DNA of 54,133 bases from Dehalococcoidales bacterium. Lineage in GTDB: Bacteria; Chloroflexota; Dehalococcoidia; Dehalococcoidales; UBA2162. The notes under the pieces were generated by a model that had not been told where the DNA came from, ran no database searches, and worked only from the letters and a program-made list of their open reading frames with translations. This document shows, piece by piece, positions 2,490 to 34,833 of this stretch; positions within the stretch are counted from its first letter, which is position 1, and each line of letters begins with the position of its first letter. The DNA lies in NCBI GenBank assembly GCA_034432095.1, contig DAOUCV010000088.1:1-54133 (forward strand), read 5' to 3'. Made by a program: the position numbers and the translations under genes.

Positions 2490-4847
2490 TCAATCGATGT
2501 ATTCAAAGATTTTTATTTCGGGGACTTGCCTGCCATCTGGCAGCGTTATATTATCCGAGCCATAAATCAGTTTGTAGTGTTCCAGCGCTTCTAGGGGCAC
2601 GGGGCTGAGCATCGGGTTAGGGCTGACTATTCTATAATTGGTTGAATTCTGACTGGAGAGATAGGCTTCCGCCTCTTCGTAAGTGCTTTTTTGTTCAGCG
2701 CTGGTGATTACCTTATAGATGTTACCGTCCTTGTCCACGTTTTGCTCATAGGAGATTACCCATACACTCTCAGGGGCCACCGCCTTACCGTCAAAGTTAT
2801 ACAGTCTGGCGATTAACGAACGGTAGTATTCAGGGTAGAAAAGTGGTCTTAATACCCAAGTTTTGTTTTCCTGTGGTATAAGATAGAAGTCAAAATATTC
2901 ACTTGGTTGCCTTCCTGCCCAGGTAGCAACCGCCCAGAATTTGCCAGAGGCTGTGATGGGGTTGGTGTAGGCTGTCTCGAAGTCAGTAATAATATATTTC
3001 GCGCCAAGTTTTTTGGCTATCTCGTCGGCTGACTTTTCATCCTGGGAAACAAAGTAGGAAGCTACCAGGGTCAAGGCTTTGGGCTCCTGACTGGGATTAG
3101 CAATTGGTATGCGGCGGGCAATGCGGGTAATCCAATAACCGTAGTCCCACCAAGCCAGGACACCGTAAGCGGACTCGGGGTATTTATAGTTTTCTCCAGG
3201 CGGTGGTTGTTCGGGGAGCCCATAATACAGGTCCGGATTGCCAAAGGGCTCAGGGGTATTTTCCTTCATCCAGGTGAGAGAGCGAACCCAGGCATCACTG
3301 GGAGTATACTGTGCCTGACGAGCAACCGTGGTCATTGGACCAATATTCCAGAAGAAAACGACAAAGAAAACAACAAGTACCGCTAACGCCATAACGGTGT
3401 AGTTGATAATGGTGGTCAAGCCACCCCTTTTCGGTCTGGCTTTTCCACCCCCCGCTTGTTTGGCCACTTTTACAGCTCTCGGAGTCAATTCCTTGAAACC
3501 AGCCAGCTCGAGAACTCTCCATGACAGGTAGCCGGTGAGCAGGGCTGCATTAACTGAATAATAGTAACCAAAGCGGCGTTGCCCAAGAGTCGCCGCCAGT
3601 ATTACCAGACTCCACACTAGCAAAAGGGTTTTTTCGGCAGCGCCTTGTTTGATAACGAGATAGATTAGTATGCCAAGGGAGATGAAACTGAGGAAAAAGC
3701 CGGTGGTGAAATTACCCCAGGCAACAGCCAAGGGATTGCCATAAATGGAACTGATCAGAGGCTGCATTTCGAGGGTGGTGAGCTGAGCGCCTGTCGGGTG
3801 GAAAATACCAAATGCGCTTAGTATTGAGCTTACCCGAGGAGCATCAACGAGGTAGAATAAGCCCAACCCAGCTCCTCCAAGCACGAGTAAAACTAGCGGG
3901 TAGTAGGCTGGTCTTATCTGCTTGCCGGTCATTAGTCGAGAGACCACATTCAGCACTAGCGGGATAAATAAGGCAATAACTAGATACAATATGTCTACCG
4001 AAGTTGCCAAAGATAGGATTATAGTAACAAGGAAGAGGGCAGCGCCAACCAGGCATAGATAGTCCGTAGATTTACCCCTCAAGTGGTCAATAATGAACTG
4101 GATGACGAAAAATACCGAGATGATAAATACAAAAAGCAGTGCCCCCATCCAGGTGAGGATGTAGATTCCCAGGAAGATACCCGCCAGCAGACTATAAATA
4201 AGTGGCTTTCTAACTATTGCCCAATTTAGGTGCCTCAGATGGCTGAAGGTTAACTGTTTCTGCCCCGCCGTCCTGATAGCCAGAATCAGGAACATGATGG
4301 TTGTGGTACTGAGCAACGTCTCAGCAACGTGGTGGTCTGTGGAGCCCAGTATTGAACGACCAACAAATTCACCGCCCAGGATGGACAAAAGACCAGCCGA
4401 GAGCACACCAATCCAGCGGCTGGACAGCTCTTTACCGATAAAGTAGACGGGAATAACGGTTAGAGCACATAGGACCACCGGGAAATAGACGCTAATTACA
4501 TCAACAGTGTGCTGGGTCGGTGAGCCCAAGCTAATCGCCCAGATAATGCCAGCAAGGAGATAATCAAAGAAGAGGCTGCCACCCACCGCTTTACCCGAAG
4601 GATAGATAAAGTATGGGTCAAATTTGAAAAGGTGGGGAAAGTTATGGGCGAGATTGTCAACGATGCGCATATGGTAATAAGCATCATTACAGGTAAATCT
4701 TATCCCCTCAGGAGTAAATACTCGGGCGTAGGGGTAAAAAATACGAACGAATAGGGCAACGGCAAAGAATAGAGCCACTAGTATGCCCGCAAAAAGTTCC
4801 GGGGAAAGTTTACCCTTGCCAGCTTGCTGGGCTTTTTTCGCGCTCAT
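2490..4847 (-). CDS. aglB: STT3-family oligosaccharyltransferase, euryarchaeal AglB type (785 aa)
   Basis: Multi-TM N-terminus with CNDAYYHMR, DHHVAE, TIXE-like TTLEMQP and QRRFGYY; soluble C-domain with YKYPESAYGVLAWWDYGYWI, ANPSQ and DFETA...GKFWA. Confidence 0.93.
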   Translation of the reverse strand: MSAKKAQQAGKGKLSPELFAGILVALFFAVALFVRIFYPYARVFTPEGIRFTCNDAYYHMRIVDNLAHNFPHLFKFDPYFIYPSGKAVGGSLFFDYLLAGIIWAISLGSPTQHTVDVISVYFPVVLCALTVIPVYFIGKELSSRWIGVLSAGLLSILGGEFVGRSILGSTDHHVAETLLSTTTIMFLILAIRTAGQKQLTFSHLRHLNWAIVRKPLIYSLLAGIFLGIYILTWMGALLFVFIISVFFVIQFIIDHLRGKSTDYLCLVGAALFLVTIILSLATSVDILYLVIALFIPLVLNVVSRLMTGKQIRPAYYPLVLLVLGGAGLGLFYLVDAPRVSSILSAFGIFHPTGAQLTTLEMQPLISSIYGNPLAVAWGNFTTGFFLSFISLGILIYLVIKQGAAEKTLLLVWSLVILAATLGQRRFGYYYSVNAALLTGYLSWRVLELAGFKELTPRAVKVAKQAGGGKARPKRGGLTTIINYTVMALAVLVVFFVVFFWNIGPMTTVARQAQYTPSDAWVRSLTWMKENTPEPFGNPDLYYGLPEQPPPGENYKYPESAYGVLAWWDYGYWITRIARRIPIANPSQEPKALTLVASYFVSQDEKSADEIAKKLGAKYIITDFETAYTNPITASGKFWAVATWAGRQPSEYFDFYLIPQENKTWVLRPLFYPEYYRSLIARLYNFDGKAVAPESVWVISYEQNVDKDGNIYKVITSAEQKSTYEEAEAYLSSQNSTNYRIVSPNPMLSPVPLEALEHYKLIYGSDNITLPDGRQVPEIKIFEYID

Positions 4848-4954
4848 GAGTGCTTGCTCCTAAATCAGTTACAGCTAGGCAGCATTGTGATAAGTATTAC
4901 ACAGTAACCAATCTTTGGCAAGTTGAAAACCTGCTTTGCTAGTTGAGATGTGTC

Positions 4955-4983
4955 TTCATTTAATACCCTTTTTAAGATATAAT
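4955..4983 (+). promoter_or_regulatory. Sigma70-type promoter of the plus-strand glycan arm
   Basis: TTCATT (4955..4960), 17 nt, TATAAT (4978..4983) in the aglB/wecB divergent gap. Confidence 0.55.
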
Positions 4984-5044
4984 GGGAATATAATTAGGCG
5001 GCAGCGATTCTCGAGTGTCGTGGGGTCGGAGGAGAGTTCGATAA

Positions 5045-6127
5045 GTGAAAATTGCCATAGTGCTCGGCACTCGGCCCGAAATTATCAAGATGGCACCGGT
5101 GATAAAGGAACTGGAAAGAAGAAAAACGGATTTCTTCATCCTGCACAGTGGTCAGCACTATTCTTATCACCTTACCCGGGTTTTCTTTGAACAACTCAGG
5201 CTCCCCAAGGCCAAATATAATCTGGAGGTTGGCTCTGGCTCCCATGCTGAGGAGACGGGCAAGATGTTGATCGGTATCGAGAAAGTGCTCCTTAAAGAAA
5301 GACCGGATGCTATCATGGTCGAGGGAGATACTAACAGTGTGCTGGCTGGGGCGCTGAGTGCTGCCAAACTTGGTATCAAGGTAGGACACGTTGAAGCCGG
5401 TCTACGCAGTTATGACCGGAGTATGCCCGAGGAAGTCAACAGAATTCTGACTGACCATCTATCTGACCATCTTTACGCGCCTACCCCGAAGGCTCGAGAA
5501 ATACTTCTGGGGGAGGGAATTGACGAGGAGAAAATATTTGTCACCGGCAACACCATTGTTGACGCCGTGCATCAGAATTTAGAAATAGCTAAAGAGAAGG
5601 GTAATACCCTCAGCGCCCTGAACCTTCATCCCAGGGATTTTATTCTGGTGACACTTCATCGTCAGGAGAACGTAGATAACAGGACAAGATTGGCTTCCAT
5701 GCTGGAGGGCCTGGATAAAGTGGCGGCTGAGTTCAAACTCACAGTAGTCTACCCCGTCCATCCGCGCACGCAGAAACGAATGGAACAGTTTCAGCTCGCT
5801 CCGCAAAATCTGAAGCTAATCAAGCCCCTGGGCTACTTTGACTTTTTACAGCTTGAGAGTAATGCTGCCCTCGTCCTCACCGATTCCGGTGGGGTACAGG
5901 AAGAAGCCTGTATCCTTGGTGTTCCCTGTGTTACCCTGAGGGATAATACGGAGCGCCCCGAGACTCTGGAAGTGGGCGCCAATATCCTGGCCGGTGCTTC
6001 TGCTGATAGGATCCTCGAGTGTTGCCGGATAATGCTCCATAGAGACAAAAACTGGCTAAATCCCTTCGGTGACGGTAGGGCAGCGGAGAGAATCGTTAAA
6101 ATAGTGACGGAGTCTGGACATGGCTAA
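5045..6127 (+). CDS. wecB: UDP-N-acetylglucosamine 2-epimerase (non-hydrolysing; WecB/WbpI family)
   Basis: GTRPEIIK, SGQHY, EGDTNS, HVEAGLRS, MPEE, TLHRQEN, TDSGGVQEEA, NPFGDG. Confidence 0.93.
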   Translation: MKIAIVLGTRPEIIKMAPVIKELERRKTDFFILHSGQHYSYHLTRVFFEQLRLPKAKYNLEVGSGSHAEETGKMLIGIEKVLLKERPDAIMVEGDTNSVLAGALSAAKLGIKVGHVEAGLRSYDRSMPEEVNRILTDHLSDHLYAPTPKAREILLGEGIDEEKIFVTGNTIVDAVHQNLEIAKEKGNTLSALNLHPRDFILVTLHRQENVDNRTRLASMLEGLDKVAAEFKLTVVYPVHPRTQKRMEQFQLAPQNLKLIKPLGYFDFLQLESNAALVLTDSGGVQEEACILGVPCVTLRDNTERPETLEVGANILAGASADRILECCRIMLHRDKNWLNPFGDGRAAERIVKIVTESGHG

Positions 6128-7043
6128 AATACTGGTTACGGGAGGGGTGGGATTTATAGGTTCAAACCTCACCCCCGAACTTAGACAAAGGAAGCACGAA
6201 GTCTGGGTCTGTGACCTGGGGCATTCCGAAGGGCCAAACTACATCCGCTGCGATGTCACTAAATACCGGCAGCTTGAGAGACTCTTTGAGGAACACGACT
6301 TTGACTACGTCTATCACCTGGCTGCAGAATACGGGCGCTGGAACGGGGAGGATTACTATGAGAATCTCTGGCTCACCAATGTCATCGGCACCAAGAACCT
6401 GTTAAGAATTCAGGAGAAGAAAAAGTTCCGGATGATATTCTTCTCCAGCGCTGAGGTCTATGGAGATTATGACGGGGTGATGAGCGAGGATGTGATGGAC
6501 AAAGTGCCGATAAAACAGATGAATGACTATGCTATAACTAAGTGGGTAGGAGAACTTCAGGTATTAAACTCAGCGGCTATGTTTGGCACGGAAACAGTCA
6601 GGGTTCGTCCCGTCAATGCCTATGGACCTCATGAATACTATAGCCCTTACCGCGGGGTAATACCGACCTTCATCTATAAGGCACTGAGAGGCGAGCCCTA
6701 CACTGTCTATCTAGGGCACAAGCGTATCTTTGACTATGTTGAGGATACCTGCCGCACCTTCGCCAATATCGTTGAGAATTTCAAGCCAGGAGAAGTCTAC
6801 AACATTGGCGGGAGAGAGGAATGGGAGCATGACATCAAATATATCTCTGACTTAATCTTGAAATACCTGGGTAAGGATGATTCGCAGGTCATTTATAGAG
6901 AAGCAGAACCATTTACGACTAAGGTCAAACGTATTGACTTCTCCAAAGCAAAGAGAGACTTAAACCACGACCCCAAAATACCTCCAGAGGAAGGCATACC
7001 GAGAACTATTGAGTGGATGAAGAAAGTCTACAGCGTAAAATGA
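6120..7043 (+). CDS. NAD-dependent nucleotide-sugar epimerase/dehydratase (extended SDR)
   Basis: TGGVGFIG, HLAAEYG, SSAEVYG, YAITK (YxxxK), NAYGP. Confidence 0.9.
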   Translation: MAKILVTGGVGFIGSNLTPELRQRKHEVWVCDLGHSEGPNYIRCDVTKYRQLERLFEEHDFDYVYHLAAEYGRWNGEDYYENLWLTNVIGTKNLLRIQEKKKFRMIFFSSAEVYGDYDGVMSEDVMDKVPIKQMNDYAITKWVGELQVLNSAAMFGTETVRVRPVNAYGPHEYYSPYRGVIPTFIYKALRGEPYTVYLGHKRIFDYVEDTCRTFANIVENFKPGEVYNIGGREEWEHDIKYISDLILKYLGKDDSQVIYREAEPFTTKVKRIDFSKAKRDLNHDPKIPPEEGIPRTIEWMKKVYSVK

Positions 7044-8248
7044 AGATTCTTTTCGTCCAAGAGACAGATTGGCTCAGACGAAACCCGGCTCAGCAACATC
7101 ACTTGGCGGAGATGTTATCACTGAGAGGGCACGAAATCCGAGTTATTGATTATGAGTTATTATGGAGGACACAGGGTAAAAAAGAACTCTATTCAAGGCG
7201 ACAGGTCTTCCACAATGTGTCTAAGATTCATGACGGTGCCAGAATCACTGTATTCCGGCCCGGCATTGTCAAGATTCTCTGGCTAGAGTATATTTCACTG
7301 GTATTTTCCCATAAGAGGGAGCTCGAACGGCAGATGGATGAATTCAAGCCAGATGCCCTGGTTGCCTGGGGTATATTGAATAGTTGTCTGGCTGTAAAAG
7401 CCGCCAGAAAAAACAATATACCATTCCTCTACTACTGGATAGACGTGTTAGACAGACTTATACCTTCCAAAGCTTTCCGCATCATTGGTAAACTGGTGGA
7501 AAGTAGAACCTTGAGGCAGTCGGATAGGATACTGGTAATCAATGATAAACTTAGAGAATATGTCATCGGACTGGGTGCTCCACCCGGACTGACTCGGGTC
7601 TTAAGAGCAGGCATTGATACCAAGCAATTTAATCCGGATACCCATCATCGCGAAATAAGGAAACAATACGGTCTTGATGAGGACGATATTGTTCTCTTCT
7701 TCATGGGTTGGCTCTACCGTTTCTCAGGCTTAAAGGAGGTTATCTCGCAATTGGCTGCAAGCCAAGACCATAATCTCAAGCTCCTTATCGTTGGCGAAGG
7801 TGATGCTTACGAAGAGCTTCAGCAAATAAGCGGGAAATATAACCTTCAGGGTAGAGTTATCCTTGCCGGTAAGAAGCCTTATCGTGAGATACCCGATTTC
7901 ATTGCCGCCGCTGATTTCTGTCTTCTCCCGGCCTACCCCTCGGAGCCAATTATGCAAGATATCGTGCCGATAAAAATGTACGAATATATGGCGATGAGAA
8001 AACCGGTAATTGCCACCAGACTTCCCGGGATAGTGGAGGAGTTCGGCGGAGATAACGGCGTGGTTTATGTGGATAGACCGGAGGACGTGGTTACAAAAGC
8101 TATTGAGCTGGTACGGAATGGCCGTAGGGAAACGCTCGGGGCAAAAGCCAGGAGCTTTGTGGAACGAAATAGCTGGGATAACATTACCAGCGAATTTGAG
8201 AAAATTCTGGAAGAAGTGATAAAGGAAAAAACAAGATGGACAACCTAA
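7040..8248 (+). CDS. Glycosyltransferase family 4 (GT-B)
   Basis: Start moved to ATG 7040 (ATGA overlap). GIDTKQF, FMGWL, IVGEG, PIKMYEYMAMRKPVIAT, RNSWDNI. Confidence 0.88.
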   Translation: MKILFVQETDWLRRNPAQQHHLAEMLSLRGHEIRVIDYELLWRTQGKKELYSRRQVFHNVSKIHDGARITVFRPGIVKILWLEYISLVFSHKRELERQMDEFKPDALVAWGILNSCLAVKAARKNNIPFLYYWIDVLDRLIPSKAFRIIGKLVESRTLRQSDRILVINDKLREYVIGLGAPPGLTRVLRAGIDTKQFNPDTHHREIRKQYGLDEDDIVLFFMGWLYRFSGLKEVISQLAASQDHNLKLLIVGEGDAYEELQQISGKYNLQGRVILAGKKPYREIPDFIAAADFCLLPAYPSEPIMQDIVPIKMYEYMAMRKPVIATRLPGIVEEFGGDNGVVYVDRPEDVVTKAIELVRNGRRETLGAKARSFVERNSWDNITSEFEKILEEVIKEKTRWTT

Positions 8249-9231
8249 GCGAATATAAAGGCAAAAATATCCTTATCACAGGTGGGGCAGGGTGCATCGG
8301 CAGTAATCTCACCAAAGCCCTACTCAGGGCGGAGGCGGCTAAAATTCTTGTCCTTGATGACCTCTCTGCTGCGGAAAGGTGGAACATCCCCGATGCTCCA
8401 AGTGTGACCTTTATTCAAGGAAGCGTTCTGGATGAAGAAGTTTTAAGAAGGGCATTCTCTCAAAAGCCCGATTTTGTCTTCCACCTGGCGGCTCATTTTG
8501 CTAATCAGAACTCAATAGACCATCCTGAGACTGACCTCCTGGTTAACGGGCTTGGCACCCTGAAAATCCTGCGATACTCCCACCTGACCGGTGTGGGGAA
8601 AGTAGTCTTTGCCTCCTCAGGCTGTTCCGTTTACGGAAGCGAGGCGCCCCTGCCCCTTAAAGAGGATTTTGTCTCCCTTCACCTGGATACCCCGTATCAA
8701 ATCACCAAACTTTTAGGAGAACTCTATGGTAACTTCTTTTACCATTATTACGGCTTGCCGGTGGCTATAGCCCGCTACTTCAATGTATACGGTCCGGGAG
8801 AGGTCCCGGGAAGATACCGTAATGTTATCCCCAACTTCATCTGGTGGGCTCTCCATAAAAGACCGCTACCCATAACGGGCACCGGTGAAGAGACCAGAGA
8901 TTTCACCTTTGTTGACGATATAGTTGATGGCACATTGCTCCTGGGCATTATCCCGCAAGCGGCCGGTGAGGCCTTCAACCTCGCTTCAGGGACAGAAACC
9001 AGGGTGATTGACATAGCCAATTTGATAAACGAGTTGACTGGTAACCACAACGGGGTTGAGTTTGTTGCCAGAAGGGACTGGGACAAAATCACCCGCCGGC
9101 GAGCCTCGATCGAGAAGGCAAAGATGGTTCTGGGCTATGAACCCAGAGTGAAGATGAAAGAAGGCATAAAGAGGGTACTCGACTGGATTGTAGAAAATCG
9201 CGAGAAGATAGAAGCCAGCGCCAGGTTTTAA
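8236..9231 (+). CDS. NAD-dependent nucleotide-sugar epimerase/dehydratase
   Basis: TGGAGCIG, HLAA, ASSGCSVYG, PYQITK, RYFNVYGP, ETRDFTFVDD. Confidence 0.9.
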   Translation: MDNLSEYKGKNILITGGAGCIGSNLTKALLRAEAAKILVLDDLSAAERWNIPDAPSVTFIQGSVLDEEVLRRAFSQKPDFVFHLAAHFANQNSIDHPETDLLVNGLGTLKILRYSHLTGVGKVVFASSGCSVYGSEAPLPLKEDFVSLHLDTPYQITKLLGELYGNFFYHYYGLPVAIARYFNVYGPGEVPGRYRNVIPNFIWWALHKRPLPITGTGEETRDFTFVDDIVDGTLLLGIIPQAAGEAFNLASGTETRVIDIANLINELTGNHNGVEFVARRDWDKITRRRASIEKAKMVLGYEPRVKMKEGIKRVLDWIVENREKIEASARF

Positions 9232-9240
9232 GCTGGAGGT

Positions 9241-10011
9241 ATGATGACCCTGAAAAATGAAATTGAATTCTATAGTAAGGTTGAAGTCTCCGCCAATACC
9301 GGTGAAATTGAGACCTGGGACCGGATAATATTCCCCAATGTTATCCGGAAGCGTGAAATTGAGTTAATTTTGGGTCAAATCTCCCAGGTAAAACCGAAAA
9401 GAATCCTGGACTTTGGCTGTGGGGCAGGATGGCTGAGTAAAATCTTATCCTTGAACGGCTACAGTGTTGTCGGGATTGATGTCGCCCCGTATTTAATCGA
9501 AAAAGCTACCAGGTTGTCCCTTGACAGGGCTCATTTTGTCGTTGGCGATTGTATGAATTTGCCTTTCCGAGAGAAATCTTTTGACTTCATCACAGGAGTT
9601 GCCATACTGCACCATCTGGACATAGACAAAGCCTTGGCTGAGTGCCGGCGGGTTACCGTTGACGGAGCGATGAGCCTGTTTCTGGAACCGAACAGGCTCA
9701 ATCCAATCTCGGCTCTGGGAGAGAAAATAGCACCTCATACAAGGGGAGAAAGACGTATAACCCGGGAGGGACTGAGAAGGTCACTTCTTAAACAGGGGTG
9801 GGCTGTCCGGGAGGTCCGGTGCCTTTTCCCCTATAGCTTCGGTCTAGCCTACCTGCTCGGAAGAACAGGGCTTCAAAACAGCAGCAAATTAGGATTTATT
9901 ACCAAACTGGTAAAGGTTTCAGAAGAGCTCTTGGAGAAAGTGCCCTTGCTGAATCAATTCGGCTCCACCTTGATGGTGGTCGCCAAAAGGATAAACGGTG
10001 GTGAGTCTTAA
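9241..10011 (+). CDS. Class I SAM-dependent methyltransferase
   Basis: ILDFGCGAG, VVGIDVA, GDCMNLPF, SFDFI, ILHHL, EPN. Confidence 0.88.
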   Translation: MMTLKNEIEFYSKVEVSANTGEIETWDRIIFPNVIRKREIELILGQISQVKPKRILDFGCGAGWLSKILSLNGYSVVGIDVAPYLIEKATRLSLDRAHFVVGDCMNLPFREKSFDFITGVAILHHLDIDKALAECRRVTVDGAMSLFLEPNRLNPISALGEKIAPHTRGERRITREGLRRSLLKQGWAVREVRCLFPYSFGLAYLLGRTGLQNSSKLGFITKLVKVSEELLEKVPLLNQFGSTLMVVAKRINGGES

Positions 10012-11446
10012 TATAACCCTGGTCAGCCCCAGAATTAGGGAGTGGAACCCAAACGTATGGGTGCCTCTTGGCATCTCATATGTCGCTGCGGTGTTAGAAC
10101 AAGCGGGACACAATGTCGAGATAATTGACCTGAATCTGGACAGTACAAAAGACCTCCGGAGAAGCATAGAGAATGCCGACATCGTGGGTATAACCGGCAT
10201 GATAACTGAATACCAGCAAGTTTTAAAGCTGGTCGATATGGTTAAACAGGGTAACGGGAGTTCAAGAGTAATTTTGGGAGGTCCTCTGGCAACAACCCTT
10301 CCTCGGGAGCTACTCCAGGCATCAACGGCTGATTTCGTTGTCATTGGTGAGGGTGAAAGAACAGTAGTTCAGCTTGTCTCGGCGATAGAACACGGTGATA
10401 GTTTCTCCAAGATCAATGGAATTGCGTATCGGGATGGTGACCAGATTGTTGTTACCGAGGCGGCGAAGCCCATAGTCAATCTAGACACTATCCCATTTCC
10501 AGCAAGACACCTCTTAGATATGAAGCGATATGCCACAAACCACTTTGCGCGTTTTGGCCTTAAGATTGAAGGGTTCGGCAAAATTAAGAGCACTAACCTG
10601 ATTACCAGCCGGGGATGCCCTTACAGTTGTACCTTTTGCTTTAAGGACATGTGGGGGTATAAATGGAGGGCACGAAGCCCAGCAAATATTATCGAAGAAA
10701 TGGAGCTACTGGGCAGGAGATATGGTATCAATGGTTTCTTCTTTAACGATGATACCTTTGTTCTTGACCGAAGAAGGATTTTTGAATTTTGCGATTTGCT
10801 AAAGAAGAAGGCCCTGGATGTAGTCTGGTATTGTAATGGGCGGGTGAACCTTATGAGCAGGGAACTGCTGAAAGCAATGTATGATGCTGGATGCCGGGGA
10901 ATTGCCTATGGCATAGAATCAGGGAACCAGCAGGTGCTGGACTCAATGAAAAAGAACCAGACCCTTGAGCAGACGAGAAACGTAGTTAAGTGGACGAGAG
11001 AGGTTGGATTTCACGTTGCCGGTTATTTTATGATTGGGATGCTGGGTGAAACCAAGGAGACTATTTGCCAGACCATCGCTTTCGCCAGGGAATTAGACCT
11101 GGATTTTTACGGGTTTTCAATAGTAACTCCGCTGCCTGGCACCGAGCTATATAAAGCTGCCCAAGAGCAAGGATTAATACAACGGGATATGACATCACTC
11201 AAAGAGTGGGGCTTTTATGTCAATGCCAACTTGACTCAGGATTGTACCGACGATGACCTGGTTGCTTTTGAGAATAAGGCGTTCCGGGAGTTTACTCTGG
11301 AGAAGTTTGGCAAATATTATCTCCTCACCCCGGGTTTCGTCAAAGGAGTAGCCGAGGTGCTTCTCTCAATTCGGAGCCGAAATGATGTGAAAGAATTAGC
11401 CAGGAAAGCCGGGGGAATTATCCGCTCTTACTGGCACGGGGCTTGA
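9998..11446 (+). CDS. B12-binding radical SAM protein (class B methylase-like)
   Basis: N-terminal cobalamin-binding region (PLGISYVAAVL, VILGGP, GEGE), SRGCPYSCTFC (CxxxCxxC), DDTF, GIESG, PLPGTELY. GTG start at 9998 or 10001. Confidence 0.9.
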   Translation: MVSLNITLVSPRIREWNPNVWVPLGISYVAAVLEQAGHNVEIIDLNLDSTKDLRRSIENADIVGITGMITEYQQVLKLVDMVKQGNGSSRVILGGPLATTLPRELLQASTADFVVIGEGERTVVQLVSAIEHGDSFSKINGIAYRDGDQIVVTEAAKPIVNLDTIPFPARHLLDMKRYATNHFARFGLKIEGFGKIKSTNLITSRGCPYSCTFCFKDMWGYKWRARSPANIIEEMELLGRRYGINGFFFNDDTFVLDRRRIFEFCDLLKKKALDVVWYCNGRVNLMSRELLKAMYDAGCRGIAYGIESGNQQVLDSMKKNQTLEQTRNVVKWTREVGFHVAGYFMIGMLGETKETICQTIAFARELDLDFYGFSIVTPLPGTELYKAAQEQGLIQRDMTSLKEWGFYVNANLTQDCTDDDLVAFENKAFREFTLEKFGKYYLLTPGFVKGVAEVLLSIRSRNDVKELARKAGGIIRSYWHGA

Positions 11447-11447
11447 G

Positions 11448-12605: not shown

Positions 12606-12615
12606 GCAAACCAAT

Positions 12616-15511: not shown

Positions 15512-15522
15512 CAAGGTAGAAA

Positions 15523-16497: not shown

Positions 16498-16503
16498 AAA
16501 GAT

Positions 16504-17613: not shown

Positions 17614-17636
17614 GGGTTTCTTACGAGGGTGGCAGA

Positions 17637-18371: not shown

Positions 18372-18419
18372 TTTGTACAGTAGAGACCGAATTAATAGCA
18401 GGGTTTGAGAGGTCTTTGG

Positions 18420-19739: not shown

Positions 19740-19779
19740 GATAGTTGCTAAAAAGAGAGTAAGCAGGGTATTTCCTCAT

Positions 19780-21348: not shown

Positions 21349-21354
21349 GAGAAA

Positions 21355-22479: not shown

Positions 22480-22520
22480 GTCCTAAAGCCAGGAATCGCA
22501 GAGACGTGCATCTCCGAGCG

Positions 22521-23456
22521 CTATCGTCTTTCTAGGAACAGGTTCACGATTTTTTCCTTCTCCTGGCATAATTTCATTAGTTCATCGATATCATTGATTT
22601 TAAGAACCCGGTTCTCCAGCGAGCGCAGTTCATCTATGGCGGTTACCGCAAACCCGTAGTCGTTCACCAATTTAGAGACGAACTCGCGTGGTGAAAACCC
22701 CATTTCCTCAATGGCTGAGGGATAGAATTCAATAAACATCTTCAAACCGGGGTTGTTTCTAATAATTCTATCCATGCCCAAAACTACCGCCATCTCCGAA
22801 CCTTCGCAGTCCATCTTGATGACATCAATCGGGTGCCCTTTGTCCTTGAAAAACTCGTCCAGGGTCACCGCTTCAACCTCAACAAAATCTCCTGATTGTT
22901 TGGTGTCAAACTGCCAGTGGTCGTGCTTCTCCCGCAAGGTATGCGCTCCAATATCAGTATGGGAGAGATACAGCTTGACTGTCCCTGACACATTGAAGAC
23001 AGCTTTTTGGACAGGGACAACATTGTCATACCCATTCAAAGACAGGTTTTTCAGAAGAACTTCGTAGTTATGTGGTTCTGGCTCGAAGGCATAAACCGTT
23101 CCCGTGGGGCCCACCAGCCTGGCGGCGAGCAAGGTGAAATAGCCAATGTTGGCACCGATATCAACTACGGTCTGCCCCTCTTTAACTGCCTGCCTAAACA
23201 GCGAGGTGGTGAGTTTCTCTTTCCCATGCGACCGAATAAAACCTCGAAAAGCAGCGCGCATCGGACCCTTGACCCGAGGGTTTAAATACATCTTGCTACC
23301 TTCAATATGCACAATGCTTTTTGTCGGCCATAGCCAGAGAAGCTCGGTAAAGAAGCGGTAGAGCGCCTTGACACCTGGAATCCGATTTGCGCCTACTTTT
23401 ATGAAAACTCTAGAAGTCTTATCAAAAGCGGAAAGCAAGGATGACCTTGCTGTCAT
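22521..23456 (-). CDS. FkbM family methyltransferase
   Basis: VVDIGANIGYF, VYAFEP, VTLD, IKMDCEGSE. Confidence 0.9.
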   Translation of the reverse strand: MTARSSLLSAFDKTSRVFIKVGANRIPGVKALYRFFTELLWLWPTKSIVHIEGSKMYLNPRVKGPMRAAFRGFIRSHGKEKLTTSLFRQAVKEGQTVVDIGANIGYFTLLAARLVGPTGTVYAFEPEPHNYEVLLKNLSLNGYDNVVPVQKAVFNVSGTVKLYLSHTDIGAHTLREKHDHWQFDTKQSGDFVEVEAVTLDEFFKDKGHPIDVIKMDCEGSEMAVVLGMDRIIRNNPGLKMFIEFYPSAIEEMGFSPREFVSKLVNDYGFAVTAIDELRSLENRVLKINDIDELMKLCQEKEKIVNLFLERR

Positions 23457-23506
23457 TTTCCCACCTCCCTAACCTAACTATTCTATTTCGGAATAGCTAA
23501 ATGCGT

Positions 23507-24262
23507 TTATCGTGCATCAGCTACAGCATATATTACTCTGTACTGAAAATTGGGTGAGTCATCAGGTATTGGTTCCGGTTGAATGGTTTCTGCCATTCCA
23601 TCTTCAATTTCTTCCTTTAGTACTGAAGTGCCGAGAAGGGAACAACTCAGGAACTCCTTAATTTTTGCCCCTTTGGGTATTAAAGCAATAGCCTTCCCTG
23701 CCCTTGCTATCACGGCGTTACGTAGCCCTGTTGCTTGTGACGCTCTGTGTATTGGGAAAGCACCAAAAAATCTGACATCAAAATGTTTACTTACCAACGT
23801 CAATAACTCAGGGACCGAAAAATAATTCCTGCTGAGTCGGCTTGGTTGGAAGTGAGGTTGGTCTTTGTTAGGTGTACAAAAAATTAATCTGCCGCCCTTT
23901 TTAAGGATACGGTGGCATTCGTCGAAGAACTTGCCCACTTGTAGATAGATGATGGTAGCCATAGCAACCACTACATCAAAGCAATTATCCCTGAATGGCA
24001 GATGATGAGCATCCAGGCGGACAAGCTCCGCCCTCTCCTCGTAATGCTGCCGGGCTAACCTCAGGTTATCCTCAGCATAATCTCCACCAATGACCCTTTC
24101 TGCCTTTCTGGACAAGTAACCCAGACCCAGTCCGGGACCACAGCCAACTTCTAACACTTGCTTACCTGAGACAAACTGAGAGACAAAATAGTAGCGACAG
24201 CAGATAATTTGCAACTGCTCCCTGGTTACCTTCATTCCTGGCATCTCGGCCTCGTAGCTCAT
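23507..24262 (-). CDS. Class I SAM-dependent methyltransferase
   Basis: VLEVGCGPG, GGDY, LDAHHLPF, FDVVV, TPN. Confidence 0.87.
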   Translation of the reverse strand: MSYEAEMPGMKVTREQLQIICCRYYFVSQFVSGKQVLEVGCGPGLGLGYLSRKAERVIGGDYAEDNLRLARQHYEERAELVRLDAHHLPFRDNCFDVVVAMATIIYLQVGKFFDECHRILKKGGRLIFCTPNKDQPHFQPSRLSRNYFSVPELLTLVSKHFDVRFFGAFPIHRASQATGLRNAVIARAGKAIALIPKGAKIKEFLSCSLLGTSVLKEEIEDGMAETIQPEPIPDDSPNFQYRVIYAVADAR

Positions 24263-24268
24263 GTTTAT

Positions 24269-25384
24269 TTACCTCTTTTTATGCTTCTCAACCAGCTCTT
24301 TATATAACTTGCCCATCTTCCCCATTTCCTTTTCCCAGTCGTTTCTCTCTAAGATTATTTCCCGGCTTATTCTGCCGAACCTCTGCCGGGTCTCCCCGTC
24401 TTTCAGCAGGTAAATAATCTTTGAGGCCAAAGCCTCAGGAGCTTTCAGTGGTACGATGAACCCATTTACTCCATCCTCAACCCACTTTCTGTTGTCTCCG
24501 AAATCGGTGATTATTACTGGCAGTCCTGAAGCCATGGCTTCGGCGGTGCTGGCAGCAAGCCCGGCATCGGAAAGTGAGGTGGAGACATAAATATCTGCTG
24601 AGGCTACATAGCGGGGAAGTTCATCCGCCGGAACTCGACCGACAAATATGACACTTTCAGCAACACCGAGGGACTGAGCTAACTGTTTTAGTAGCTCTTC
24701 CTGAGAACCCTTCTCAAGGACCAAAAATTTTGCTCTGGGAAACTCTCTCAGAACCAGGGGTACCGCCCTAATCAATGACTCTATATCATATATTGGCTCA
24801 AGGCGTCTTAGACTGATTATCACTGGTGAATCGCCAAGCCCGAGCTCCTGCCGGAGCCTTTCGTCTTTCTGCTCCGGGGTAAACCTGCGGGTATCAGTCC
24901 CAAAATAGATAACCCTGATCTTCTGTGGGTCTGCCCCCAGCTTTACCAATGGCTCCTTGATGTGCTCGGCATCACAGGTTATCAGGTCAGCCCTTTTCAG
25001 GACATACTTTACCATCCATCTTTGCATTCTTGATTTTTGGGGCAAAATCAGAACATCAGAGCCCCAGGGAGTGGCGACAAAGGGGTGGAAACCGCTGAGC
25101 GCACCCAGCAAGGACGTGTCCATAATCTGATGGACATGAATGATGTCCGGGCGTATCCTGCCGACTAGCCAGTTGAACTGGATAACCAGCGGTATGGCAT
25201 TTATCAGATAGTTGCTGGCCCGCCACTTTGGCCCGATTCTTTTCAACCGATGCACCCTGACACTGCCAATATCACCATTGCCGTCAGTCGAGGTTATCAG
25301 GTGCACTTCGTGACCATTATCGGCAAAATATTTCATCCAGCGATTGGTGTGTACGCCAGTAGAGGCAATATAACATATCTTCAT
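24269..25384 (-). CDS. Glycosyltransferase family 4
   Basis: PDIIHVH, TPWGSD, GTDT, YVSTSLSD, EAMASGLPVIITD, VNGFIVP. Confidence 0.9.
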   Translation of the reverse strand: MKICYIASTGVHTNRWMKYFADNGHEVHLITSTDGNGDIGSVRVHRLKRIGPKWRASNYLINAIPLVIQFNWLVGRIRPDIIHVHQIMDTSLLGALSGFHPFVATPWGSDVLILPQKSRMQRWMVKYVLKRADLITCDAEHIKEPLVKLGADPQKIRVIYFGTDTRRFTPEQKDERLRQELGLGDSPVIISLRRLEPIYDIESLIRAVPLVLREFPRAKFLVLEKGSQEELLKQLAQSLGVAESVIFVGRVPADELPRYVASADIYVSTSLSDAGLAASTAEAMASGLPVIITDFGDNRKWVEDGVNGFIVPLKAPEALASKIIYLLKDGETRQRFGRISREIILERNDWEKEMGKMGKLYKELVEKHKKR

Positions 25385-25388
25385 CGGC

Positions 25389-26651
25389 TCATAGAGTCCG
25401 GTAATAGAATCCTGCTTCTACCGCCTGCTTTCTATTGAAGAAGCCACGAACATCAATCAGTATCGGCCGGTCATTCATAATGCCTTTTAGTTTACCCAGG
25501 GTTATTTTCTGAAAAGCGCGATGAGCCACCGTCATAATTACAGCATCAACCTTAGGGACCCGGGTAAAGCTGGGGATGACCTTGATACCCAGTTTGTCTT
25601 CAATATCATTTTTTAGTAGGGGGTCATAGCCATAAATCTCAATTCCGTATTCCTGAAGCTCCTTGATAATCTCCTTTACCGGGGTCTCCCTGGTATCAGC
25701 GACATTCTCTTTATAGGTCAGACCCATGATGAGAACCTTTGAGTCTTTTATTACCTTATCCACGTTATTCAAGGCTTTAATGGTCATTAGAGCTATATGT
25801 TTGGGCATAGCATCGTTTATGGCTCTGCCAGCCAGGATTACCTGAGGATGGTAGCCAAGCTCCTTAGCCTTGTAGACAAGGTAGTAAGGGTCTACAGGAA
25901 TGCAGTGCCCGCCAACCAAGCCGGGGGAATACCTGTGAAAGTTCCACTTGGTGGCAGCGGTATCAAGAACATCTTTGGTATCCAGGCCTAGCCTGTCAAA
26001 GATAAATGATAGCTCATTTACCAGGGCGATATTTAAATCCCGTTGAATGTTTTCAATGACTTTAGCCGTCTCCGCCGTCTTTATATCCTTGGCTTTGAAA
26101 ATATGAGGGGTAACCTTCCGATAAAGCTCAGCCACAAGCTCAGTGGTCTCTTCATCCATGCCGGCAACCACTTTGGTTATTTTGTCAAGTGTGTGTTGCT
26201 CATCTCCCGGGTTTATCCTTTCGGGACAGTAGGCGATTTTGAAGTCCCGGCCACACCTGAGCCCAGATTCCTCAAGGATTGGCTTGACTATCTCCTCAGT
26301 AACTCCGGGGTAAACCGTGGACTCCAGAATTATGACGCTATTTTTCTTCATATTCTGGCTGACCGTGGTGGCGGCCGTCTTTACCGGGGATAAATCGGGT
26401 TCTTTTGACCTGGTCACCGGAGTCGGGACGCAGATGATAACAAAATCAGCCTGGTTTATTTCCTTGGGATTAGTAGTAAAGGTGAGGTTTTGATTGGCGT
26501 TCCGACGGTTCAGCCTCTTCACTCTGGCGGCATCTATATCAAATCCAATCACTTTAAGGCTTTTGGAGAACGCTTCAGCTAGAGGCTGTCCCACATACCC
26601 CACCCCGACGACGCATACCGTGGCTTTATTTAATCTTAACTTGTTTTTCAT
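25389..26651 (-). CDS. UDP-N-acetylhexosamine 6-dehydrogenase (WbpA/WbpO/TviB family)
   Basis: VGVGYVG, CVPTP, ESTVYPG, PERINPG, KVIENIQRD, GGHCIPVDP, GLTYKENVAD. Confidence 0.92.
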   Translation of the reverse strand: MKNKLRLNKATVCVVGVGYVGQPLAEAFSKSLKVIGFDIDAARVKRLNRRNANQNLTFTTNPKEINQADFVIICVPTPVTRSKEPDLSPVKTAATTVSQNMKKNSVIILESTVYPGVTEEIVKPILEESGLRCGRDFKIAYCPERINPGDEQHTLDKITKVVAGMDEETTELVAELYRKVTPHIFKAKDIKTAETAKVIENIQRDLNIALVNELSFIFDRLGLDTKDVLDTAATKWNFHRYSPGLVGGHCIPVDPYYLVYKAKELGYHPQVILAGRAINDAMPKHIALMTIKALNNVDKVIKDSKVLIMGLTYKENVADTRETPVKEIIKELQEYGIEIYGYDPLLKNDIEDKLGIKVIPSFTRVPKVDAVIMTVAHRAFQKITLGKLKGIMNDRPILIDVRGFFNRKQAVEAGFYYRTL

Positions 26652-27570
26652 TGAACCATCCTATCGTTTCAGCTAACCCGGCTTCTAGCCCATACTTTGG
26701 CTCATACCCAAAAGCTTTAGCTTTAGAGATATCAGCCAGGCTATGTCTTATGTCCCCGGCTCTCGGCTCCTGGTGAACGGGCTTAATGTCACAACCGATA
26801 AGCTCTATGATAAGCTTGGCTAGCTGGTTTATAGTAACACTCTCCCCGCGAGCGATATTAAATACGCCACAAGCCTCGCTCTCTGCGGCTAAGATAGTCG
26901 CTTCCACAGTGTCTTTAACGTAGGTGAAGTCTCTGGTCTGTTCGCCATCGCCAAAAATAACTGGAGAATTGCCGGCTAAAGCCCATTTTATAAACCTGGG
27001 TATAACCGCCGCATATTGAGAGGCTGGGTCCTGCCTCGGTCCATAAACATTGAAATATCTTAGGCAAACGACAGGTAATTGGTAAACTCCACCAAAAACC
27101 TGACAGTAATATTCTCCAGCGAGTTTGGTAACGGCATAAGGGGATAAGGGGTGGGGTATCATATCCTCCTTTTTGGGGAGGGTAGGGGTATCACCGTATA
27201 CCGATGAGGATGAGGCATAAATTACCTTCTTAACGTGGTGTTCCTTGGCAGCTAGGAGCACATTTAGTGTTCCGTTCACATTCACTTCGTGGGAGGCTTG
27301 AGGGTTATCAATACTTCGGGGCACACTTGAGAGAGCCGCCAGATGAAAAACAAAGTGAGCGTCTTGCAATGCCTTTTTTAGCAGGGGTAGATTTGTAATA
27401 CTCCCGCGGACAAACCGGACGTTGTCTTTCTTCAGCAGTTCCTGTATGTTTTCTATCTTCCCGGTGGACAGGTCATCGAGGATAACGACCTGGTAGCCCC
27501 GCCCTACCAGCTCCTCCGCCAGATGAGAGCCGATAAACCCCGCCCCGCCGGTGACGATTACTTTTTTCAT
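26626..27570 (-). CDS. NAD-dependent epimerase (WbpP/TviC-like UDP-HexNAc(A) 4-epimerase)
   Basis: TGGAGFIG, SVPRSI, ASSSSVYG, SPYAVTK, YFNVYGPRQDP, YAAVIP. Confidence 0.88.
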   Translation of the reverse strand: MKKVIVTGGAGFIGSHLAEELVGRGYQVVILDDLSTGKIENIQELLKKDNVRFVRGSITNLPLLKKALQDAHFVFHLAALSSVPRSIDNPQASHEVNVNGTLNVLLAAKEHHVKKVIYASSSSVYGDTPTLPKKEDMIPHPLSPYAVTKLAGEYYCQVFGGVYQLPVVCLRYFNVYGPRQDPASQYAAVIPRFIKWALAGNSPVIFGDGEQTRDFTYVKDTVEATILAAESEACGVFNIARGESVTINQLAKLIIELIGCDIKPVHQEPRAGDIRHSLADISKAKAFGYEPKYGLEAGLAETIGWFNEKQVKIK

Positions 27571-27597
27571 CTAACTATCTCTGCCAAACCTTCATCG

Positions 27598-28818
27598 TCA
27601 GGCCACTACCTGATTGAATATAGCAACTATTCTATCAGCCAGGTTCCTTCGTTCAAACTGGGATACATACTCCCATTTCGGATGAAAATTGCGAAATTCT
27701 CCTTGCTTCCACTGGCGAAAGATGTTTCTCAGTTGTTCTTTCATCTTCTCAAACTCGTATGATAGGATGAACCCGGCCTCAGCTTCTCTGACCAGTCTAG
27801 CCGCGTCACCATCCTCAGGCACAAGGGCAAGAATCGGTTTGCCGAGGCGAAGATACTCGTAGATTTTTGAAGGTATCCACTCGGCATATGGAGGCATGAC
27901 TACGAAAAGAAAATCACCCCCGGCAGCAAAGGCAAGAGCTTTTTCTCGCACCAAATGCATTACTTTAGTTAAGTGTGGCATATTTATATCCTGAAGTGCA
28001 ATCGAGCCACGCCCAATAAATACTACCTCGGCTTGCCTATCTACCTCGTTAACCGCATTAAGAAAGGTCATAATCGGTTCTCTAAACTCTGGATAGAAAC
28101 TGCCCAGGAAAACAATGGTTAGCTTATCAGGGTACAGCCGGTAGGGTTTTATCTCAGTAAAATCAGACTCGTGGTAGCCGTCGGTTACTACCTCTATCTT
28201 GTCCTTCTGGGCTGAATATAGCTGACTTAACTGTTGCTTGTGGTAAGGGTGGATAACGATAACTTTATCGGCGGACTCTACGATTTGTCTCTCCTTTTTT
28301 CGGATCCGGCGCTTCAATATCTGTCGCAAGGGAGGCACTAAGGTGTCGTCAAGAAAGCGATTAAGAAAGTCATTGCCAGTCAGCAAGTCGCCGAATTCAG
28401 CAACCCAGGGAATACTAAATTCTTTTTTGAGTTCCATAGCGACAAAATGGGCAGAGTAGGGGGCAGAATCACTGTAAATCAGGTTAACCTTTTCTTTCTG
28501 TAAGACGCTTCTCGCTTCTCTCAAAGCTGGAGAATACCAACTCTCATAGCCGTCAGGAAATTGAAAGTTCATCTTCAGCCTTCGGAGGACATATAGCCAC
28601 TCCTTAGGTAGCTCACGGTGCCCGACATGGTGAACTTCAATGTTAGCAGGGATATCCTTAAGGAGGGAGTAGTCTTTTCCATAGCTCACTGTTTCAGCCG
28701 CAGAAAGCACAACAGGTTGCCAGCCAAGCTCAGGAAGAAACCTAATGAGTCGGTGACCTCCAAACCACCCACCCATCAGTGGCGGGAAGAAATAGTCAAT
28801 GCACAGCACCTTTTTCAT
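27598..28818 (-). CDS. Glycosyltransferase family 4-like
   Basis: YFFPP, GWQPVV, DSAPYSAH, PSKIYEYLRLGKPILA. Confidence 0.83.
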   Translation of the reverse strand: MKKVLCIDYFFPPLMGGWFGGHRLIRFLPELGWQPVVLSAAETVSYGKDYSLLKDIPANIEVHHVGHRELPKEWLYVLRRLKMNFQFPDGYESWYSPALREARSVLQKEKVNLIYSDSAPYSAHFVAMELKKEFSIPWVAEFGDLLTGNDFLNRFLDDTLVPPLRQILKRRIRKKERQIVESADKVIVIHPYHKQQLSQLYSAQKDKIEVVTDGYHESDFTEIKPYRLYPDKLTIVFLGSFYPEFREPIMTFLNAVNEVDRQAEVVFIGRGSIALQDINMPHLTKVMHLVREKALAFAAGGDFLFVVMPPYAEWIPSKIYEYLRLGKPILALVPEDGDAARLVREAEAGFILSYEFEKMKEQLRNIFRQWKQGEFRNFHPKWEYVSQFERRNLADRIVAIFNQVVA

Positions 28819-28847
28819 CTGATAGATTTCCTATTTCCTCTGGTTGT

Positions 28848-33662: not shown

Positions 33663-33684
33663 TTTGTCGATAGTCCTTCCCCCT

Positions 33685-34257: not shown

Positions 34258-34292
34258 AGTCTCTCCTTTACTGGTACCGTTATATTGTCTTA

Positions 34293-34831: not shown

Positions 34832-34833
34832 TC

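Follow-up and report, generated by a model that had tools for sequence, protein, structure and literature searches.

The DNA analysed here, referred to as the window, is the 54,133-nt stretch of contig DAOUCV010000088.1 in the assembly GCA_034432095.1 of a Dehalococcoidales bacterium (Chloroflexota; UBA2162). It carries a gene for an oligosaccharyltransferase (OST) of the STT3/AglB family, surrounded by genes for the synthesis of a glycan. The OST open reading frame (ORF) encodes 785 aa on the minus strand and is divergent from a sugar operon of 16 plus-strand ORFs (5045–22479), which overlap or are at most 33 nt apart. A second arm of seven minus-strand ORFs, spaced by no more than 50 nt, runs from 31250 down to 22521 and begins with a flippase gene. 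The two arms converge on a 41-bp gap (22480–22520). The ORF map agrees exactly with an earlier note on this DNA, which had described an intact STT3 gene, a 16-gene sugar operon and a 7-gene flippase arm, 24 genes altogether. All 24 genes are intact and have significant Pfam matches (Table 1). The STT3 gene appears to be monocistronic, since a terminator-like hairpin is located directly 3′ of its stop codon; the stretch between the converging arms gave no such site. The divergent intergenic region contains weak minus-strand sites of the sigma-70 type (4921–4893 and 5014–4987), which are consensus matches only. With 23 glycan genes around an intact OST gene, the locus is an unusually complete example of its kind.

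The product of the STT3 gene matches the Pfam families STT3 (PF02516, 5e-25) and AglB_core-like (PF22627, 1e-19). Its single NCBIfam match is TIGR04154, with 598.1 bits against a curated cutoff of 450 over residues 22–784. The best match among the PDB sequences is AglB-L of Archaeoglobus fulgidus (AfAglB-L, 3WAJ; E 1e-58, residues 28–691 against 21–691), and the eukaryotic STT3 follows at about 1e-10. When a profile of 20 family sequences is used, AfAglB-L rises to 6e-89. PglB chains were not found among the PDB sequences at E ≤ 1 with the single sequence or at E ≤ 10 with this profile. The AlphaFold2 (AF2) model obtained with the 20-sequence alignment was poor (pLDDT 55), and an alignment of 120 homologues was used instead, which gave a pLDDT of 90.1 and a pTM of 0.88. 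The model shows membrane helices followed by a beta-rich C-terminal domain, as expected of STT3/AglB/PglB (GT66), in which about 13 transmembrane helices precede an extracytoplasmic globular domain. In the Foldseek comparison with the PDB, AfAglB (7E9S, 3WAK) ranks first (E 9e-35, template modelling (TM) score 0.71), the eukaryotic STT3 second (E 3.5e-22 to 2.8e-15, TM 0.51–0.63) and PglB third (E 4e-14, TM 0.50), all of them matched over the full length. DPY19, AftA, ArnT and PMT are found below PglB with weaker E values and lower TM scores. The assignment to the AglB type and not to the PglB type, which had been made in the earlier note, is therefore upheld: the curated cutoff of TIGR04154 is passed, AfAglB-L is the best match by both sequence and fold, and PglB is not detected by sequence. 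The note had also named a grouping with PglB or with GT-C families other than OSTs as the outcome that would speak against it, and neither is seen by sequence or fold.

The motifs listed in the same note (DHH, a TIXE-like segment, YxYP..AYGV..WWDYG and D....GKF) were all located in the translation. The NDAYY motif holds D55, TDHH corresponds to D171-H172-H173, and LTTLE to T357-T-L-E360. The segment YKYPESAYGVLAWWDYG contains WWDYG at residues 566–570, and DFETAYTNPITASGKF represents the DK-type motif D622...G-K636-F. D55, D171-H-H and T357-T-L-E360 align with their counterparts in AfAglB-L, as does D622...G-K636-F with the D...GK segment of this enzyme; compared with the consensus of its own family, the window protein has about 6–7 additional residues between D622 and K636. 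The WWDYG motif and the lysine of the DK motif bind the +2 Ser/Thr of the sequon, and the positions of D55, D171 and E360 serve metal binding and catalysis. In the OST family the first of these acidic residues belongs to external loop 1, the second to a DxD-type motif, and the Glu to the TIxE/SVSE motif of external loop 5. The alignment of 120 homologues shows no variation at D171, E360, W566, W567, D568, G570 and K636, and D55, Y569 and D622 are retained by 90% or more of the sequences. This conservation of metal-binding, catalytic and sequon-binding residues argues for purifying selection on the canonical OST function. Judged by its sequence, the 785-aa protein is an intact AglB-type OST, and catalytic activity is predicted for it.

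A DnaJ (J-domain) insert of 65–83 aa is present in about one tenth of the closest OST homologues (P0003, P0005, P0011, P0030, P0035, P0038, P0052, P0056, P0078 and P0099) and absent from the window protein. It is inserted after the position of window STT3 residue 464, in a basic loop between the last two transmembrane helices, which would be cytoplasmic according to the standard AglB/PglB topology. The HPD motif is kept in some of the inserts and lost in others. We know of no other case of a J-domain embedded in an OST.

The earlier note had considered the organism to be a Chloroflexota-like bacterium. The named matches of FtsZ and the tetranucleotide composition agree with this and point to Dehalococcoidales. 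On one side the cluster is flanked by a gene for a lipobox-containing family-5 solute-binding lipoprotein (SBP; 543–2339, plus strand), which converges on the OST gene, and on the other side by genes for prepilins with the bacterial N-methylation motif and for FtsA and FtsZ. The same contig also bears T2SSE and T2SSF genes and a trp operon. The ftsZ gene is located 43 kb from the OST gene, and the best matches of its product are 77–93% identical: the named ones, with 77–83% identity, all come from Chloroflexota, Chloroflexi or Dehalococcoidales, and unnamed ones reach 93%. The junctions STT3–SBP and STT3–wecB–SDR–GT4 (SDR, short-chain dehydrogenase/reductase; GT, glycosyltransferase) recur in a separate JGI assembly, and the STT3–wecB junction recurs in a Logan assembly. 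The GC content is 0.46–0.54 across the window and is slightly lower in the sugar cluster (0.46–0.49) than in the right-hand part (0.50–0.53). The tetranucleotide correlation of the window is 0.92 and 0.81 with the loci L004 (Dehalococcoidales) and L003, respectively, of the two closest genomes, and 0.26–0.54 with archaeal AglB loci. The STT3 gene alone likewise prefers Dehalococcoidales over the archaeal loci.

The glycan produced by the cluster is most likely methylated and rich in acetamido sugars, judging by the encoded enzymes. UDP-GlcNAc is regarded as the starting compound, which cytoplasmic enzymes would convert into unusual nucleotide sugars by two routes. The first route would lead to a 2,3-diacetamido-2,3-dideoxy uronic acid through the action of the 6-dehydrogenase, the 3-dehydrogenase/N-acetyltransferase fusion protein, an aminotransferase and the 2-epimerase. 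The full set of activities for this predicted product, namely 6-dehydrogenase, 3-dehydrogenase, aminotransferase, N-acetyltransferase and 2-epimerase, is encoded in the window, and the TviC/WbpP-like 4-epimerase gene is listed with it. The best match of the 6-dehydrogenase is the TviB/WbpO-type UDP-GlcNAc dehydrogenase (NF011729, 348 bits, below cutoff). The fusion protein matches NF040723, the archaeal UDP-GlcNAc 3-dehydrogenase (2.5e-46), and an acetyltransferase model of the NeuD/PglB/VioB family; the true start of its gene is probably downstream of 19739. Sugars of the 2,3-diacetamido-2,3-dideoxy uronic acid type occur in Pseudomonas O-antigen and in Methanococcus N-glycans. See also PMC11407970.

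The second route would yield a 6-deoxy amino sugar and would involve the 4,6-dehydratase, the second aminotransferase, the E1 alpha/beta pair, the B12-dependent radical S-adenosylmethionine (SAM) enzyme and several methyltransferases; three further SDRs are also counted among its genes. The resulting sugar is probably branched or C-methylated, as the gene content suggests. The radical SAM enzyme is probably a sugar C-methyltransferase or a similar modifier. SAM-methyltransferase domains are encoded by six genes, comprising three class I enzymes, one FkbM protein, the FkbM domain fused to the flippase and the radical SAM enzyme. The five glycosyltransferases of the cluster belong to the GT4 family throughout. 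The flippase fusion protein has about 13–14 hydrophobic segments according to a hydropathy scan, and its FkbM domain spans residues ~620–782. The E1 alpha/beta pair resembles pyruvate dehydrogenase and is located within the sugar operon without an E2 or E3 partner; an E1-beta homologue is found near the OST gene also at the loci L054 and L050. That the pair attaches a two-carbon branch or an acyl group to a keto-sugar is a guess.

Table 1. Genes and intergenic features of the glycan locus, with positions in the window
Feature	Position	Strand	Basis or remarks
Terminator-like hairpin	2460–2489	minus	11 pairs, then T-rich tail; directly after STT3 stop codon
AglB-type oligosaccharyltransferase (STT3 family, GT-C), 785 aa	2490–4847	minus	Pfam, TIGR04154, PDB match, AF2 and Foldseek
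Divergent intergenic region STT3/sugar operon	4848–5044		197 bp
Non-hydrolysing UDP-GlcNAc 2-epimerase, WecB/WbpI type	5045–6127	plus	PF02350 6e-116; TIGR00236 432 bits, cutoff 210
NAD-dependent sugar epimerase/dehydratase SDR1	6120–7043	plus	PF01370
GT4 glycosyltransferase (a)	7013–8248	plus	PF00534 and PF13439
NAD-dependent sugar epimerase/dehydratase SDR2	8236–9231	plus	PF01370
Class I SAM methyltransferase	9241–10011	plus	PF08241
Cobalamin-dependent radical SAM enzyme	9998–11446	plus	PF02310 and PF04055
GT4 glycosyltransferase (b)	11448–12605	plus	Pfam
NAD-dependent sugar epimerase/reductase SDR3	12616–13539	plus	Pfam
Nucleotide-sugar 4,6-dehydratase-like SDR, resembling LegB and RmlB	13527–14501	plus	PF16363 3e-77; TIGR04180 257 bits, below cutoff
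Thiamine-diphosphate E1 alpha and E1 beta	14456–15511 (alpha), 15523–16497 (beta)	plus	PF00676, PF02779, PF02780; NF006667 348 bits
DegT/PseC-type sugar aminotransferase (1)	16504–17613	plus	PF01041 7e-111
Class I SAM methyltransferase; best match pseudaminic-acid-associated methylase	17637–18371	plus	
GT4-like glycosyltransferase (c), N-terminal domain alone recognised	18405–19739	plus	Pfam
GFO/IDH/MocA sugar 3-dehydrogenase and hexapeptide N-acetyltransferase fusion, WbpB-WbpD-like	19666–21348	plus	PF01408 and PF00132
DegT-type sugar aminotransferase (2), WbpE-like	21355–22479	plus	PF01041 7e-134
FkbM-family methyltransferase	22521–23456	minus	PF05050; TIGR01444
Class I SAM methyltransferase	23507–24262	minus	Pfam
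GT4 glycosyltransferase (d)	24269–25384	minus	Pfam
Nucleotide-sugar 6-dehydrogenase	25389–26651	minus	TIGR03026 391 bits, cutoff 190
SDR 4-epimerase, TviC/WbpP-like	26626–27570	minus	Pfam; NF011728 241 bits, below cutoff
GT4 glycosyltransferase (e)	27598–28818	minus	Pfam
Wzx/MOP-family flippase with C-terminal FkbM methyltransferase (fusion), 800 aa	28848–31250	minus	PF13440, PF01943, PF05050

A type IV pilus-like cluster adjoins the glycan locus (32452–39571, minus strand). Three of its genes are split between reading frames: the T2SSE gene at ~37345–37360, the T2SSF gene at ~36403–36412 and a PilM-like gene at ~33306–33366. As none of the 24 glycan genes is broken in this way, the splits look like decay of the pilus cluster and not like the effect of general sequencing error.

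The gene order around the OST gene was compared among related genomes, as the earlier note had proposed for Dehalococcoidia. The divergent pairing is kept in L003 and L004, and two or more sugar genes accompany the OST gene at 21 of 40 loci; about one third of the loci have none of the recognised ones. These 40 Chloroflexota loci have at least 12 kb of sequence each, and sugar genes were counted within 10 kb of the OST gene. At least one such gene is present at 26 loci, at least two at 21 and at least three at 14, fractions that stand without a background control. STT3 and a sugar operon are divergently paired in both of the closest genomes as well, with orthologues of wecB, SDR1, SDR2 and SDR4 that are 69–85% identical. 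The OST of L004 shares 61% identity with the window OST, and the genes at this locus follow the order STT3, AglJ-like GT2, wecB (69%), SDR1 (85%), B12-dependent radical SAM enzyme, GT4, SDR (80%), SDR2 (82%) and GT4. The window thus differs mainly by the absence of the AglJ-like gene between STT3 and wecB. The OST of L003 is 65% identical and is accompanied by a divergent operon of different content, which encodes an SDR (75%), a GFO dehydrogenase, an N-acetyltransferase, a methyltransferase, an AsnB-like amidotransferase, a GT4 and a radical SAM enzyme; a GT4 gene and a B12-dependent radical SAM gene lie on the other side of the OST gene. Orthologues of SDR2 (75–82% identical) adjoin the STT3 gene in both genomes, and homologues of the radical SAM enzyme of the window adjoin it at nine loci.

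Genes for other glycan enzymes recur beside the OST gene as well. An AglJ-like GT2 gene is found there at ten loci; its best NCBIfam match is the haloarchaeal AglJ with 174 bits, the cutoff being 325. AglG-like GT2 genes are present at five loci, four from Dehalococcoidia and one archaeal, with 334 bits and a cutoff of 440. The positions of the GT2 genes include L004 8698–9588, L038 6045–6941, L030 8640–9344 and L033 9741–10682, among others. AglJ is a dolichyl-phosphate hexosyltransferase. A Wzx gene follows the STT3 gene downstream on the same strand at six loci, within about 220 bp at five of the six. The pattern across the loci is one of a constant OST and variable glycan genes.

Two membrane proteins were also observed next to OST genes of the family. 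A conserved protein of 481–496 aa with about 10–11 transmembrane segments and an N-terminal PVHIDDWIHL motif adjoins the OST at five Dehalococcoidia loci (L013 12465–13916, L014 4570–6012, L038 330–1817, L047 12851–14302 and L080 4713–6155). It has no Pfam or NCBIfam match; a further glycosyltransferase of GT-C-like type is a possibility. The OST gene of the Planctomycetota/Acidobacteriota clade is directly abutted by the gene of another membrane protein, also without annotation, which has 213–303 aa and 5–6 transmembrane segments (L042, L046, L070, L078, L079 and L082, e.g. L082 9147–9983). No sugar genes of the Dehalococcoidia type are found near these six loci.

A search of the protein database gave 1763 matches among the 8000 candidates scored. 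The best 120 homologues are 53–68% identical to the window protein (BLASTP), and the named ones come from metagenome-assembled genomes (MAGs) of Chloroflexota or Dehalococcoidia. In a distribution scan with one genome per GTDB species, relatives of the OST were found at no fewer than 411 loci, and the best 80 of these were broken down by group. Chloroflexota account for 57 of them, almost all Dehalococcoidia or Dehalococcoidales. Fourteen belong to other bacteria (Planctomycetota, Acidobacteriota, one labelled Chlorobiaceae and one unclassified), including a locus on a 3.6-Mb Phycisphaerales record titled "chromosome". The remaining nine are archaeal (Methanophagales with up to 39% identity, Methanothrix, Methanogaster, Methanosarcinales and Archaeoglobi). 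The best 80 loci come from MAGs throughout, with no cultured strain among them. Two OST paralogues (L029 and L061) are encoded on one 759-kb Chloroflexota contig, CAVTJN010000004.1. They recall Archaeoglobus, which has multiple AglB paralogues.

A neighbour-joining tree served only to find the nearest neighbours and to judge how deeply the Dehalococcoidia clade branches; it was built without support values and with a limited archaeal sample, and it gives no direction or number of transfers. The window protein groups with L003 within a large, deeply branching Dehalococcoidia clade. The archaeal sequences form the neighbouring group, and those of Planctomycetota and Acidobacteriota a separate clade. 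This picture agrees with Lombard 2016 (PMC4973528), where a few bacterial Stt3 homologues are nested in a euryarchaeal clade and at least two transfers from archaea to bacteria are inferred. Chloroflexi are not mentioned in that work. Its supplements include Dehalococcoides and Dehalogenimonas in the genome set, and the sole Dehalogenimonas sequence found in them apparently belongs to a different GT-C family and not to Stt3. We tentatively propose that AglB-dependent N-glycosylation is an ancient, largely vertical trait of Dehalococcoidia, with further clades in Planctomycetota and Acidobacteriota, and that it was acquired together with AglJ-/AglG-like enzymes from a donor resembling Methanophagales, Methanosarcinales or Archaeoglobi; in our judgement this proposal is slightly more apt to fail than to hold. 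Such a euryarchaeal acquisition implies that the system may run on a polyprenyl-monophosphate carrier, as in Euryarchaeota. If the proposal is true, general protein N-glycosylation would have arisen a second time, and independently, in Bacteria, and the system would be part of an archaeal-like protein envelope of Dehalococcoidia.

For the window itself, we consider it likely that the genes constitute a protein N-glycosylation locus of archaeal ancestry, which works in a Dehalococcoidales bacterium. The starting point of this assignment is what is observed: the enzyme family, its intact catalytic motifs and fold, the bacterial host and the conserved linkage of OST and sugar genes. Catalytic activity, glycan composition, lipid carrier and acceptor proteins enter it as predictions. 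The five GT4 enzymes would build an oligosaccharide on a polyprenyl-phosphate carrier, which would be primed by an initiating enzyme encoded outside the window. After its assembly on the carrier the oligosaccharide would be methylated, and the Wzx-FkbM protein would flip the lipid-linked glycan to the outward-facing side of the membrane. The AglB-type OST would then move the glycan en bloc to the Asn of N-X-S/T sequons in exported proteins. The genes for the five GT4 enzymes, the Wzx-FkbM flippase and the AglB-type OST are encoded together. No Wzy polymerase, WaaL/PglL ligase, chain-length regulator or export family was found in the 24 cluster genes or in the other window ORFs scanned. This leaves the OST as the sole enzyme able to use the flipped glycan. 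A donor linked through a monophosphate, as in Euryarchaeota (PMC4476749), is hinted at by the AglJ-like enzymes of the relatives; for the window organism such a donor is a speculation.

Several observations weigh against the assignment to protein N-glycosylation. Taken as a system, the locus is not complete, for an initiating lipid-phosphate glycosyltransferase is lacking and no obvious acceptor is encoded in the window. The scan of window ORFs of 100 aa or more gave no initiating enzyme of the PF00953, PF02397 or GT2 kind, and tblastn of the window with AglJ-like and AglG-like queries gave nothing better than E=0.2. The initiating transferase was not found in L003 either. The adjacent SBP was considered as an acceptor and rejected, as it has no N-X-S/T sequon among its 21 Asn, where about 1.8 are expected, a deficit that is not significant alone. 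The pilins, with 2–3 sequons each against 1.1–1.3 expected, show no significant enrichment. No PGF-CTERM or archaeosortase partner was detected near the bacterial copies; a regex scan of the window and of 10-kb flanks revealed PGF-CTERM tails in two archaeal loci only (L068 and L072). About one third of the Chloroflexota loci have no recognised sugar genes within 10 kb, and the linkage fractions given above stand without a background rate from random Dehalococcoidia regions. The only experimental study of archaeal-type surface machinery in Chloroflexota known to us concerns the archaellum of the cultured member Litorilinea (PMC12488501); it reports probable O-glycosylation and not N-glycosylation, and mentions no OST.

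It is unlikely, in our view, that the 23 sugar genes serve another glycoconjugate of the cell surface (for instance a cell-wall polymer, glycolipid or O-linked glycan) and that the AglB homologue uses a different glycan or is only loosely coupled to them. Wzx-type clusters usually serve polysaccharides, the STT3 gene seems to be transcribed separately with its own terminator-like hairpin, and the missing initiating transferase would fit this explanation too. The sugar-gene content next to the OST differs between genomes, which likewise counts against N-glycosylation and for this explanation; however, variable glycan content around a constant OST is the usual pattern of archaeal N-glycosylation loci. 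In the closest relatives the OST gene is still paired divergently with a sugar operon despite the turnover of gene content, and AglJ-like, AglG-like and Wzx genes occupy the same position in relatives. The lack of a polymerase, ligase, chain-length regulator and export machinery in the cluster and in the other window ORFs scanned also argues against a separate glycoconjugate. A Wzx/Wzy-dependent O-antigen or capsule cluster in particular was rejected: no Wzy_C, Wzz or export family was detected among these genes and ORFs, and all 24 genes are otherwise assigned in Pfam.

Quite improbable is the explanation that the AglB homologue has been repurposed in bacteria, its acceptor being a lipid, some other polymer or a residue different from Asn, or that it is an inactive relic. 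No assay of a bacterial member of the clade is known, GT-C enzymes of similar fold (ArnT, AftA, DPY19 and PMT) act on other acceptors, and the J-domain insert of some homologues hints at novel biology. Against this stand the TIGR04154 score above the curated family cutoff and the conservation of D55, D171, E360, WWDYG and K636 across the 120 homologues, which have diverged to 53–68% identity with the window protein. Finally, the explanation that the contig is archaeal or a misassembled archaeal–bacterial chimera, so that the bacterial OST is an artefact, is effectively refuted: it could draw on the archaeal nearest characterised relatives of the OST and on the slightly lower GC content of the sugar cluster, but the junctions recur in two other assemblies, bacterial genes lie on both flanks, the named FtsZ matches and the tetranucleotide composition (of the STT3 gene alone as well) are those of Dehalococcoidales and Chloroflexota, and homologues are located on the 759-kb Chloroflexota contig and on the Phycisphaerales record mentioned above, so that the chimera envisaged as a risk in the earlier note is not borne out.

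To our knowledge, experimentally characterised N-glycosylation in bacteria is limited to the PglB-type enzymes of Campylobacterota and Desulfovibrio relatives. The locus described here and its hundreds of relatives suggest that a system of the AglB type is widespread in a bacterial class which is abundant and for the most part uncultured. The family as such is already known, as it has been named automatically by NCBI in many Chloroflexota MAGs, and bacterial Stt3 homologues of archaeal origin have been mentioned in a general way (PMC4973528). Our literature search found no paper on an AglB or OST system in Chloroflexota or Dehalococcoidia, in line with the earlier note, whose author knew of no characterised system in Chloroflexota. 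If active, the system would explain part of the cell-surface construction in Dehalococcoidia, whose cultured dehalogenating members are reported to have no peptidoglycan synthesis genes and to possess an S-layer (PMC4959059). A flow of archaeal cell-surface machinery into Chloroflexota has been documented, e.g. for the archaellum (PMC12488501), and an active AglB-type system would be a further instance of it; one would then have to ask on which lipid carrier an OST of archaeal type depends within the membrane of a bacterium. Glycoengineering would gain new single-subunit OSTs and new pathways to rare sugars. The possible class-wide occurrence of AglB-dependent N-glycosylation is what merits further study.

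Among the known systems, the closest counterpart of the window enzyme is A. fulgidus AglB-L (3WAJ, 3WAK, 5GMY and 7E9S). The two proteins align over the full length, have the GT-C fold and a globular domain at the C terminus (TM 0.71), and share the catalytic D, the DHH and TIxE motifs, WWDYG and a DK-type motif. They differ in that the identity is only about 23% (Foldseek), the host is bacterial and the window protein is shorter by about 90 residues. The curated cutoff of TIGR04154, the archaeosortase A system-associated family of euryarchaeal AglB, is passed; no archaeosortase/PGF-CTERM context was detected in the window or the 10-kb flanks. The Campylobacter pgl locus resembles the window in that a single-subunit bacterial OST is encoded beside GT4 enzymes, sugar-modifying enzymes and a flippase, and both loci imply block transfer without a polymerase. 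PglB itself, however, is not detected by sequence (profile, E ≤ 10), ranks by fold below the eukaryotic STT3 (TM 0.50) and has an MI motif in place of the DK motif of the window enzyme. The window also has no initiating enzyme of the PglC type, and its flippase is of the Wzx type, while the Campylobacter flippase PglK is of the ABC type.

The predicted sugar chemistry can be compared with the Methanococcus N-glycan and Pseudomonas WbpA/B/E/D/I pathways, with which the window shares the same full enzyme set. The best NCBIfam match of its dehydrogenase domain is the archaeal UDP-GlcNAc 3-dehydrogenase model. In contrast to these pathways, the dehydrogenase and the acetyltransferase are fused in the window, and the equivalog scores are below the cutoffs except for wecB. 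The Agl system of Haloferax volcanii (AglJ, AglG, AglB and AglR) has counterparts in the related Dehalococcoidia loci, which encode AglJ-like and AglG-like GT2 enzymes, with matches below the curated cutoffs (325 and 440 bits), and a flippase of the Wzx/AglR family. The window differs from it in having neither GT2 type and GT4 enzymes only. Methylation of the glycan, which is predicted for the window, also features in the Agl pathway of H. volcanii.

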